DNA from: Escherichia coli
Lineage (GTDB): Bacteria > Pseudomonadota > Gammaproteobacteria > Enterobacterales > Enterobacteriaceae
NCBI RefSeq assembly: GCF_003018235.1
Contig: NZ_CP027437.1
Length of the DNA stretch: 64,000 nucleotides
Direction: 5' to 3' (one strand)
How positions within the stretch are numbered: the first letter of the stretch is position 1; each line of letters begins with the position of its first letter. Below are positions 25,508 through 42,190 of this stretch, one piece after another. Made by a program: the position numbers and the translations under genes. The notes beneath the pieces are model-generated. The model saw nothing but the letters and a program-made list of their open reading frames with translations, did no database searches and was not told the origin of the DNA.

Positions 25508-26242
25508 ATGTCCAAACTCGATCTAAACGCCCTGAACGAACTGCCGAAGGTAGATCGCATTCTGGCGCTGGCAGAAACTAACGCCGAACTGGAAAAACTG
25601 GATGCTGAAGGCCGCGTTGCCTGGGCGCTGGATAATCTGCCCGGTGAATATGTACTTTCTTCCAGTTTCGGCATTCAGGCGGCGGTGAGCCTGCATCTGG
25701 TGAATCAGATTCACCCGGATATCCCGGTGATCCTGACCGATACGGGTTATCTGTTCCCGGAAACCTACCGCTTTATTGACGAGTTAACGGACAAACTCAA
25801 GCTCAACCTGAAAGTGTACCGCGCTACCGAAAGCGCCGCCTGGCAGGAAGCGCGCTACGGCAAACTGTGGGAGCAGGGTGTTGAAGGCATTGAAAAGTAC
25901 AATGACATCAACAAAGTCGAACCGATGAACCGGGCGCTGAAAGAACTGAATGCGCAAACGTGGTTTGCTGGCCTGCGCCGCGAACAATCCGGCAGTCGCG
26001 CCAATTTACCGGTGCTGGCAATTCAGCGTGGCGTATTTAAAGTGCTGCCGATTATCGACTGGGATAACCGAACGATATATCAGTATCTGCAAAAACATGG
26101 CCTGAAATATCACCCATTATGGGACGAAGGATATTTATCGGTCGGTGATACCCATACAACCCGTAAATGGGAACCCGGCATGGCGGAAGAAGAAACGCGT
26201 TTCTTTGGCTTAAAAAGAGAATGTGGTTTACACGAAGGGTAA
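25508..26242 (+). CDS. cysH: Phosphoadenosine phosphosulfate (PAPS) reductase
   Basis: ORF 25355-26242; start set at [14 protein letters not shown] (244 aa); C-terminal ECGLH motif. Confidence 0.95.
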
Positions 26243-37898: not shown

Positions 37899-37965
37899 GG
37901 TTGGGGAGCCGGTGTGTTTGTGGGCTGGATAAGCCGCAATAGCGTCTCATCCGGCAATTTGCACC

Positions 37966-38373
37966 CTATGTGTTCATCATCTTGCGCACTAGCTGCATAA
38001 ACAGCTCCTGCTCTTCTCCACTCAAACGCCCCAAAAATTCCTCATCCACGCTGTCACCTATCGGTATCGCCGCAGCAAGTATCTTTTCGCCTTCGGCAGT
38101 CAGCCAGACAAAGCGTCGCCGCTTGTCAGCGGCGTCATGTTCACGTCTGACTAAGCCACGATTTTCCATTCTTGCCAACATTTCTGCCAGCGTTGCTTTG
38201 GTGCTGACGGCTGCTTCCATCAGTGCCACCTGTTCGATACCAGGTTTATCAGCAATGGCGCGCATCACCGCGTACTGTGGTTTGGTCAGATCAGGTAACT
38301 CGTGCTGCCAGCGGGCCGTGTGTTGCTGAAAAAGCTGTCGTAACTGATGGAACGCTTTATTTCGTAACGCCAT
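37966..38373 (-). CDS. MarR/SlyA-family transcriptional regulator
   Basis: 135-aa ORF with winged-helix MarR-like region; divergent from the decarboxylase operon. Confidence 0.8.
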   Translation of the reverse strand: MALRNKAFHQLRQLFQQHTARWQHELPDLTKPQYAVMRAIADKPGIEQVALMEAAVSTKATLAEMLARMENRGLVRREHDAADKRRRFVWLTAEGEKILAAAIPIGDSVDEEFLGRLSGEEQELFMQLVRKMMNT

Positions 38374-38488
38374 GTAAACTCCGGGCTAATTCTCTGTCGC
38401 TATCATAGCGGTTTTTCAGTGACGAAGAAGATGTTGTTACTTTTCAATCCTTGCCGCTGTGGAAATGAAGGAGTATGTTAATAATAAC

Positions 38489-38502
38489 GTTCGTATACGA
38501 AC
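38489..38502. promoter_or_regulatory. Candidate operator: 14-bp perfect palindrome between the regulator and decarboxylase operon
   Basis: gttcgtatacgaac is its own reverse complement; 18 bp upstream of the UbiX-like start. Confidence 0.45.
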
Positions 38503-38519
38503 AATTAAGAGAGTAAGCA

Positions 38520-39113
38520 ATGAAACTGATCGTCGGGATGACAGGGGCTACCGGTGCGCCTCTTGGTGTGGCATTACTGCAAGCGCTGCGGGAGATGCCG
38601 AATGTCGAGACTCATCTGGTGATGTCGAAGTGGGCGAAAACCACTATTAAACTGGAAACGCCTTACAGCGCTCGCGATGTTGCCGCCCTCGCAGACTTCA
38701 GCCATAACCCGGCGGATCAGGCGGCGACTATCTCTTCCGGCTCCTTTCGTACCGACGGCATGATCGTTATTCCATGCAGTATGAAAACGCTCGCCGGTAT
38801 CCGCGCTGGTTACGCCGATGGCCTGGTGGGGCGCGCGGCGGACGTCGTGCTCAAAGAAGGCCGCAAACTGGTGCTGGTGCCGCGTGAAATGCCGCTTAGC
38901 ACAATCCATCTCGAAAATATGCTCGCACTTTCGCGCATGGGCGTGGCGATGGTGCCGCCGATGCCTGCCTTTTATAACCATCCCGAAACGGTAGATGACA
39001 TTGTCCACCACGTGGTAGCCCGCGTGCTGGATCAATTTGGCCTCGAACATCCTCACGCCAGGCGCTGGCAAGGATTGCCGCAGGCCCGGAATTTTTCTCA
39101 GGAGAATGAATAA
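38520..39113 (+). CDS. ecdB: UbiX-like flavin prenyltransferase (Pad1 / decarboxylase B subunit)
   Basis: 197-aa ORF MKLIVGMTGATGAPLGVALLQAL...; symbol from memory of O157-type annotation. Confidence 0.85.
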   Translation: MKLIVGMTGATGAPLGVALLQALREMPNVETHLVMSKWAKTTIKLETPYSARDVAALADFSHNPADQAATISSGSFRTDGMIVIPCSMKTLAGIRAGYADGLVGRAADVVLKEGRKLVLVPREMPLSTIHLENMLALSRMGVAMVPPMPAFYNHPETVDDIVHHVVARVLDQFGLEHPHARRWQGLPQARNFSQENE

Positions 39114-40825: not shown

Positions 40826-42190
40826 TCAAATTACCGCCCATACGCACCAGGTAATTAAGAATCCGGTAAAACCGAGAATGGTCGTTAACACTGTCCAGGT
40901 TTTCAGACCGTCTGCTACCGACAACCCCAGATATTTGGTCACAATCCAGAACCCTGAGTCATTAATATGTGACGCGCCAAGCCCACCAAAGCAGGCTGCC
41001 AGCGTCACCAATACGCACTGAATCGGATTCAATCCCATCACCGCTTCTGAGAGTAACCCGCCGGTTGTCAGGATTGCTACGGTTGCTGACCCCTGCGATG
41101 CACGCAGCGCCAGTGAAATAATAAATGCGGCTGGTAACAGAGGCAGGTCAATCATTTGTAGCATGTTGGCAAGGGCTTTGCCGACGCCCGATTCCACCAG
41201 CACTTTGCCAAATACCCCTCCAGCACCAGTAACCAAAATCACTACCGCCGCAGTGGGAAGGGCTGAGCCCATAATGTCGCTGGTGTGTTGTAAGCTCCAG
41301 CCGCGACGTAAAGCCAATAACCAGAATGCCAGCACCAGCGCAATCATTAGAGCTACCATTGGTGAGCCGATCAGCTGTAGCGTACCAAGCAGGGGATGCG
41401 AAGGCGGCATCAGTGTTGCGGAAACCGTACCCGCCATGATAATCGCGATAGGAATAACAATTAGCGAGGTGACCAGCGCGACGCCCGGTGGATTTATTTT
41501 ATCGCTTAATTTTGTCGCGCCTTCCTCACTGGCCGGAGCCAGTTGCATCTGTTCCAGTACTTCCACCGACATCGCATATTGGCGCTTATTGATTATTTTC
41601 GCTGCAAAGTAGCCAACAATCCCTACTGGAATAGAAATCGCAATACCGATGATGGTTAGCCAGCCGATGTCTGCGTGGAGTAACCCCGCTGCGGCGACAG
41701 GGCCTGGATGCGGCGGTACCGCCACATGAACAGTTAGCATGATTCCAGCGACAGGCAGGCCAAATTTGAGTGGCGATATTTTGGCAACCTTGGCAAAACC
41801 GTAAATGATTGGCGCAAGAATAATAAAGCCGACATCAAAGAAGACGGGAATACCGAGGAAGAACGCTGCCAGAGTCAGCGCAGCGATAGTTCGTTTGTCA
41901 CCTAACTTGCGACTGAAATAATTAGCCAGTGACTCTGCACCACCAGAGTGTTCGATCATACGCCCCAGCATAGCACCCAGACCAATAATAATAGTGACGG
42001 AACCAAGCACACCGCCCATCCCGGCGATCATCACTTTACCCACTTCGCCCGCTGGTATACCCGCCGCAAGTGCGACTAACAGGCTGACGAGGAGCAGAGC
42101 AACGAATGGTTGTACCTTTGCCTTGATGACCAGCAGCAACAGCATGATTACGCCAGTTAACGCAATGCATAACAATGTAATTGTGGACAT
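40826..42190 (-). CDS. ygbN: GntP-family permease (putative acid-sugar transporter)
   Basis: 454-aa polytopic membrane ORF; synteny with ygbM-ygbI. Confidence 0.88.
   Translation of the reverse strand: MSTITLLCIALTGVIMLLLLVIKAKVQPFVALLLVSLLVALAAGIPAGEVGKVMIAGMGGVLGSVTIIIGLGAMLGRMIEHSGGAESLANYFSRKLGDKRTIAALTLAAFFLGIPVFFDVGFIILAPIIYGFAKVAKISPLKFGLPVAGIMLTVHVAVPPHPGPVAAAGLLHADIGWLTIIGIAISIPVGIVGYFAAKIINKRQYAMSVEVLEQMQLAPASEEGATKLSDKINPPGVALVTSLIVIPIAIIMAGTVSATLMPPSHPLLGTLQLIGSPMVALMIALVLAFWLLALRRGWSLQHTSDIMGSALPTAAVVILVTGAGGVFGKVLVESGVGKALANMLQMIDLPLLPAAFIISLALRASQGSATVAILTTGGLLSEAVMGLNPIQCVLVTLAACFGGLGASHINDSGFWIVTKYLGLSVADGLKTWTVLTTILGFTGFLITWCVWAVI

Follow-up and report, generated by a model that had tools for sequence, protein, structure and literature searches.

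The perfect 14-bp palindrome that lies between the divergent genes of a MarR-family regulator and of a UbiX-like protein, which we call O1, is, as judged from its sequence, the already known and experimentally characterised operator of the regulator HosA, and its novelty is nil. We consider it highly probable (about 0.93) that O1 is the operator of the divergently encoded HosA and that it serves to block the decarboxylase operon until 4-hydroxybenzoate relieves the repression. On our side, this reading is based on sequence, position, the identity of the regulator, the identity to the published site and conservation. The literature contributes the binding, the release by 4-hydroxybenzoate, the repression in vivo and the location of the site downstream of the transcription start. 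Since site, regulator, effector and target operon were characterised in 2016, the result carries little weight as a discovery; the first reading, made from the sequence alone, had pinpointed the operator to the base. Throughout, "the window" denotes the whole stretch of 64 kb of Escherichia coli DNA that was analysed.

Position and chance expectation of the palindrome

The preliminary description had noted an exact palindrome between the two genes, and the sequence agrees: GTTCGTATACGAAC at 38489-38502 is its own reverse complement. The symmetry stops at 14 bp, as c38488 and a38503, the bases on either side, do not form a complementary pair. The distances given at that time are also right. The ATG of the UbiX-like gene at 38520 begins 18 nt past the last base of O1, with 17 nt (38503-38519) in between, and 115 nt (38374-38488) separate O1 from the hosA start codon, which is found on the minus strand at 38373. 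The spacer between hosA and the decarboxylase genes, which contains O1, is 146 bp long (38374-38519). The coordinates of all features are collected in Table 1.

Table 1. Features of the hosA-decarboxylase region, with window coordinates and the basis of each assignment
Feature	Coordinates	Strand	Basis
hosA, MarR/SlyA-family winged-helix repressor, 135 aa	37966..38373, including stop codon	-	Pfam MarR, E = 3.9e-12
13-bp palindrome CGCTATCATAGCG near hosA, core CTATSATAG	38398..38410	no strand	conservation
Predicted -35 box TTGCCG of the decarboxylase operon	38451..38456	+	TTG conserved in a MAFFT alignment of 75 spacers; inferred
Predicted -10 box TATGTT, 17 nt past the -35 box	38474..38479	+	TAnnTT conserved across genera; inferred
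O1, HosA operator, perfect 14-bp palindrome GTTCGTATACGAAC	38489..38502	no strand	sequence, match to the published site, conservation
HosA-site motif as pattern, GTTCGNNNNCGAAC			
Shine-Dalgarno-like AAGAGAG, 6 nt before the subunit B ATG	38507..38513	+	sequence
Decarboxylase subunit B, UbiX-like flavin prenyltransferase, 197 aa	38520..39113	+	Pfam Flavoprotein, E = 1.1e-44; RefSeq orthologue annotation
Decarboxylase subunit C, UbiD family, 475 aa	39113..40540	+	Pfam UbiD_N, UbiD, UbiD_C; RefSeq
Decarboxylase subunit D, 78 aa	40551..40787	+	open reading frame; RefSeq

How unusual is a palindrome of this size? In 300 first-order Markov simulations, 5.3 +/- 2.4 perfect palindromes of at least 14 bp are expected in 64 kb, and we observe three; the expectation for the 146-bp spacer is 0.011. 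Since the window shows no excess of palindromes of this length, the case for O1 rests on its position and its conservation, and not on its symmetry. The two further perfect palindromes of at least 14 bp in the window are GGCATCCGGATGCC at 1026-1039 and the 16-bp AAGAAACGCGTTTCTT at 26190-26205.

The O1 14-mer occurs once in the window. Allowing for three mismatches we see three matches against 1.9 expected, which is the chance level, and with regard to other HosA targets in the window we were not able to find any copy of O1 with fewer than three mismatches.

The regulator and its genomic context

By its protein sequence, the regulator beside O1 is HosA. It shares 132 of 135 residues (98%) with HosA of E. 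coli E2348/69, and the three substitutions relative to the E2348/69 protein (M52, I98 and G119) are conservative. Among the solved structures, it matches PDB entry 8aga, "Transcriptional regulator HosA", with E = 6.9e-84, and the next closest structure is PcaV with E = 5.8e-16. The HosA that was used for crystallography was taken from the record NZ_LT827011.1, that is, from E2348/69 (locus L001 here).

The gene order is truD-surE-pcm-nlpD-rpoS, followed by hosA on the minus strand and by the genes for the subunits B, C and D on the plus strand; RefSeq genomes show this order in their annotation as well, and the locus corresponds to the rpoS-mutS variable region of enterobacteria. The orthologues of the three plus-strand genes carry the RefSeq name "non-oxidative hydroxyarylic acid decarboxylases" subunit B, C or D. 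Subunit D, the smallest of them, is kept in 78 of 80 hosA loci (the set is described below). The preliminary description took O1 for a MarR-type dimer operator controlling an island. The first half of this proposal stands, as the HosA gene adjoins the site and the published HosA site is identical to it; the second half has to be narrowed, as the controlled unit is the three-gene decarboxylase operon, together with hosA itself according to the literature, and not a larger island.

Of 5426 complete E. coli genomes, 2330 contain a match to the spacer, in every case on the chromosome. On its right-hand side, the island has two different contexts in E. coli. It is followed either by a cluster with ygbN (GntP permease), as in this window (40826-42190 onward) and in E2348/69, or directly by pphB-mutS, as in O157:H7 and FDAARGOS_497 (L002, L003 6455-8146). 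The spacer of FDAARGOS_497 is 100% identical to that of the window.

Several loci show disrupted genes. For example, an annotated frameshift affects rpoS in E2348/69 "variety 2" and in O157:H7 86-24 (L001, L002 2480-3473), and subunit B is frameshifted in FDAARGOS_497 (L003 4147-4741). In E. coli 15.TR.026_OXA (L005), an IS26 beside a class 1 integron (dfrA17, aadA5) replaces hosA and the left part of the spacer, and an IS10A interrupts subunit C; the palindrome and the promoter persist. As hosA has been replaced, what remains of the operon in this strain is without its repressor.

Identity with the published HosA site

The 14-bp HosA site is ascribed to Roy & Ranjan (Biochemistry 2016, PMID 26818787). 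A later study (Sci Adv 2018, PMC6261655) used synthetic DNA with the "14-bp TFBS of HosA" from E. coli UMN026 and reported that UMN026 HosA binds the 14-bp site in EMSA, BLI and ITC experiments, that the affinity is nanomolar, and that 4-hydroxybenzoate releases the protein. Several later in vitro biosensors for 4-hydroxybenzoate reuse the same site. A link of HosA to flagellin has also been reported. In its summary of Roy & Ranjan, a 2024 preprint states that HosA represses the decarboxylase operon and itself, that 4-hydroxybenzoate lifts this repression, and that the palindromic site is located downstream of the transcription start, a placement which suggests that RNA polymerase is blocked sterically.

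We compared O1 with the oligonucleotides printed in table S1 of PMC6261655. These follow the scheme AATAATAAC-GTT(T)CGTATACGAAC-AATTAAGAGA, and their flanks are the same as in the window. One of them, T_H, contains the exact TGTTCGTATACGAACG. The other oligonucleotides show the site as the 15-nt GTTTCGTATACGAAC, with one extra T, although the text of the same paper speaks of 14 bp. A genuine 15-nt site in the UMN026 lineage can be ruled out, because a genome with UMN026-type flanks (L004 2909-3060) reads AATAATAACGTTCGTATACGAACAATTAAGAGAATAAACAATG, that is, the perfect 14-mer without the extra T. The difference in length of 59 versus 58 stems from AAACAATG as compared to the printed AAACATG, and not from the site. 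The extra T in print is either a typographical error, or the oligonucleotides did contain an extra T and still bound HosA.

Promoter and start region

A scan of 37900-38700 for consensus sigma-70 promoters did not call any. The predicted boxes TTGCCG and TATGTT match the consensus in 8 of 12 positions only, and it is for this reason that the scan missed them. The promoter that we propose is based on cross-genus conservation, as in the alignment of 75 spacers TTG(cc) and, 17 nt on, TAnnTT are found directly before the site. From the two boxes we would place the start of transcription at about 38485-38488, 1-4 nt before O1, so that O1 would cover about +2 to +17. O1 is thus predicted to sit at or just after the transcription start, and not upstream of the promoter. 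A start upstream of O1 agrees with the placement of the HosA site downstream of the start in the literature. Further downstream, other genera have GAGG where the window has its Shine-Dalgarno-like sequence.

On the hosA side of the spacer there is another palindrome, CGCTATCATAGCG, located about 25-28 nt before the hosA ATG. Divergent E. coli lineages share it without change, and its core CTATSATAG is kept from genus to genus; read on the hosA (minus) strand, it gives TATGAT. Going by this sequence and placement, it is probably the -10 box of hosA. The terminator scan also flags this palindrome, on the plus strand.

Conservation of the site

Within E. coli, the 14-mer is unchanged in lineages with no more than 88-89% spacer identity to the window (E2348/69, O157:H7 and the UMN026 type). 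Base 38488, directly adjacent to O1, varies among these lineages.

For the wider comparison, we fetched 80 hosA loci via an alignment of HosA homologues, taking one genome per species. The set covers about 20 genera (Escherichia, Citrobacter, Salmonella, Klebsiella, Enterobacter, Kluyvera, Kosakonia, Leclercia, Lelliottia, Phytobacter, Atlantibacter, Rahnella and others), and the proteins range from 59 to 98% identity. Absence of the palindrome from orthologous islands would have spoken against the operator, and this is what we looked for. We see that the site is present with at most two mismatches in all 80 loci, in each case beside the decarboxylase operon. The proposal came through this comparison unrefuted.

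The hosA gene is divergent from the subunit B gene in 75 of the 80 loci. For all but one of these 75, the spacer has a length of 125-199 nt and the site is found 15-36 nt, mostly 15-21 nt, before the ATG. The exception is L075 (Enterobacteriaceae bacterium LSJC7), in which the spacer measures 598 nt instead of the usual 170 or so and the site is still 16 nt away from the operon ATG. We take this to mean that the site travels with the promoter of the operon and not with hosA. Five loci do not have the UbiX-like subunit B gene, and their operon opens with the UbiD-like subunit C. They come from a Pluralibacter MAG, Superficieibacter sp., S. electus, Cedecea sulfonylureivorans and Rahnella victoriana (L055, L066, L071, L074 and L084), and the palindrome is kept in them.

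When 81 sequences are anchored on the site, none of them departs from the common base at positions 2-5 and 10-14, position 1 is a G in 76, and the common variants are confined to positions 6-9. The most frequent form is GTTCGTATACGAAC itself with 27 occurrences, followed by ..ACAC.. (23), ..ATGC.. (11), ..GTAC.. (10) and ..GCATAC.. (4). Expressed as mean information per position, the arms reach 1.97 bits, the centre 1.41 and the flanks 0.41. Furthermore, the fetched loci amount to 493 kb and contain 81 matches with no more than one mismatch. Every one of these is located upstream of hosA, and by our own arithmetic chance alone should yield about 0.08. The motif that results from the survey, with invariant TTCG/CGAAC arms and a tolerant 4-bp centre, could help the engineering of HosA sensors.

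A possible second site

In about 40 of the 74 short spacers (L033, L016, L039, L036 and about 36 more) we find a second HosA-like site, nnnCGTRYRCGAAC, which is partly degenerate (1-4 mismatches) and which we call O2. It precedes the ATG of subunit B by 72-77 nt and O1 by 56-57 bp, and 4-5 nt separate it from the predicted -35 box. O2 is present in Klebsiella, Enterobacter, Kluyvera, Leclercia, Lelliottia, Pseudocitrobacter, Pluralibacter and Phytobacter, and absent or degenerate in Escherichia (including the window), Citrobacter, Salmonella, Kosakonia, Atlantibacter and Rahnella. The counterpart of O2 in the window, GTTGTTACTTTTCA at 38433-38446, matches in 5 of 14 positions, and the spacers of Escherichia are about 25 nt shorter.

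Potentially, the ancestral control region had two HosA sites, O1 and O2, of which O2 was lost in Escherichia, Citrobacter, Salmonella and Kosakonia; we regard this as a tentative scenario with the odds somewhat against it. If O2 is functional, there may be cooperative or looped repression, or autoregulation of hosA, in the genera that bear it, and Escherichia would be a naturally simplified variant with one operator and a different induction behaviour. The presence of O2 outside of Escherichia could be of interest to those who engineer HosA sensors.

Proposed mechanism and alternative explanations

In the mechanism that we consider most likely, a HosA dimer would grip the two half-sites of O1, GTTCG and CGAAC. 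Sitting at about +2 to +17, it would block RNA polymerase at initiation or in early elongation (that is, at the open complex or at promoter escape), rather than by masking the -35 or the -10 box. As long as HosA is bound, the operon for the non-oxidative 4-hydroxybenzoate decarboxylase (B, C and D) would be off. When 4-hydroxybenzoate, the substrate of the decarboxylase, enters the cell and binds HosA, the protein would come off the DNA and the operon would be transcribed.

The predicted start just before O1 would put the palindrome inside the 5' leader of the mRNA, where it could act as an RNA hairpin that tunes the translation or the stability of the decarboxylase message. RNAfold does give a stem of 5 bp with a loop of 4 nt at O1, and the natural variation at positions 6-9 falls exactly into this would-be loop. 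However, the hairpin is weak. Its centroid has -4.9 kcal/mol, and its stability does not exceed that of shuffled sequences (z-score 0.35), 130 of 200 shuffles folding equally well or better; moreover, it reaches neither the Shine-Dalgarno sequence nor the start codon. The sequence of the arms is invariant in about 20 genera, so that compensatory change and covariation are both absent, and this suits a contact with protein better than a constraint on structure. Taken together with the published binding of HosA to double-stranded site DNA (PMC6261655), this makes the hairpin a very improbable explanation. We give the same low credence to the idea that the main binder is a different regulator, such as the paralogue SlyA or some other MarR-family protein, and that HosA is incidental. 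HosA is a homologue of SlyA, and sites of MarR-family proteins can be shared; on the other hand, the site strictly accompanies the hosA-decarboxylase pair (80 of 80 loci), the effector that frees HosA is the operon's own substrate, and the island, and hence the site, is missing from more than half of the complete E. coli genomes. As the site tracks hosA strictly, a further regulator is not required to account for it.

Even less credible, in our view, is the reading of O1 as an intrinsic minus-strand terminator or as a chance palindrome without function. The terminator scan flags 38503-38488 on the minus strand, followed by TTATTATTAA, but the stem has only three G-C pairs, the T-run TTATTATTAA is interrupted, and no transcription unit converges from the right, where the decarboxylase genes are on the plus strand. 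Given so weak a stem and the broken T-run, and since no minus-strand gene lies upstream, we reject an intrinsic terminator at this place. As for chance, 14-bp palindromes do occur at chance frequency across the window, yet chance offers no explanation for arms that are invariant over 80 species while the flanks drift. Our preferred reading is still that O1 is the operator of HosA.

Comparison with known systems

The closest known system is the HosA operator of UMN026 itself. It has the same 14-mer, the same immediate flanks, the same gene order (hosA divergent from B, C and D) and the same place in the rpoS-mutS region. The regulator is the same (98% identical), and the position that we predict for O1 relative to the start would agree as well. 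We could not find any material difference; a few bases between the site and the ATG are not the same (GAGTAAGCA here and GAATAAACA in the UMN026 type).

O1 also has what is generally seen in operators of the MarR family, namely an inverted repeat of about 14-20 bp in the spacer between regulator and target that overlaps the promoter or the start. In the systems of MarR/marO, SlyA, HucR and PcaV there is likewise a short inverted repeat in a divergent spacer, overlapping the promoter or the start, to which the repressor binds as a winged-helix dimer until a small phenolic or aromatic acid frees it. Many MarR systems differ in having two sites, or in having them placed over the -35 and the -10 box, whereas Escherichia has a single, perfectly symmetric 14-bp site just past the predicted start.

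Finally, the bsdA-bsdBCD locus of Bacillus subtilis resembles the hosA locus in that a phenolic acid decarboxylase made of UbiX, UbiD and a small subunit is induced by its substrate and is encoded next to a divergent regulator gene. In contrast to HosA, the regulator there is of the LysR type and works by activation, and its operator is unrelated to O1.
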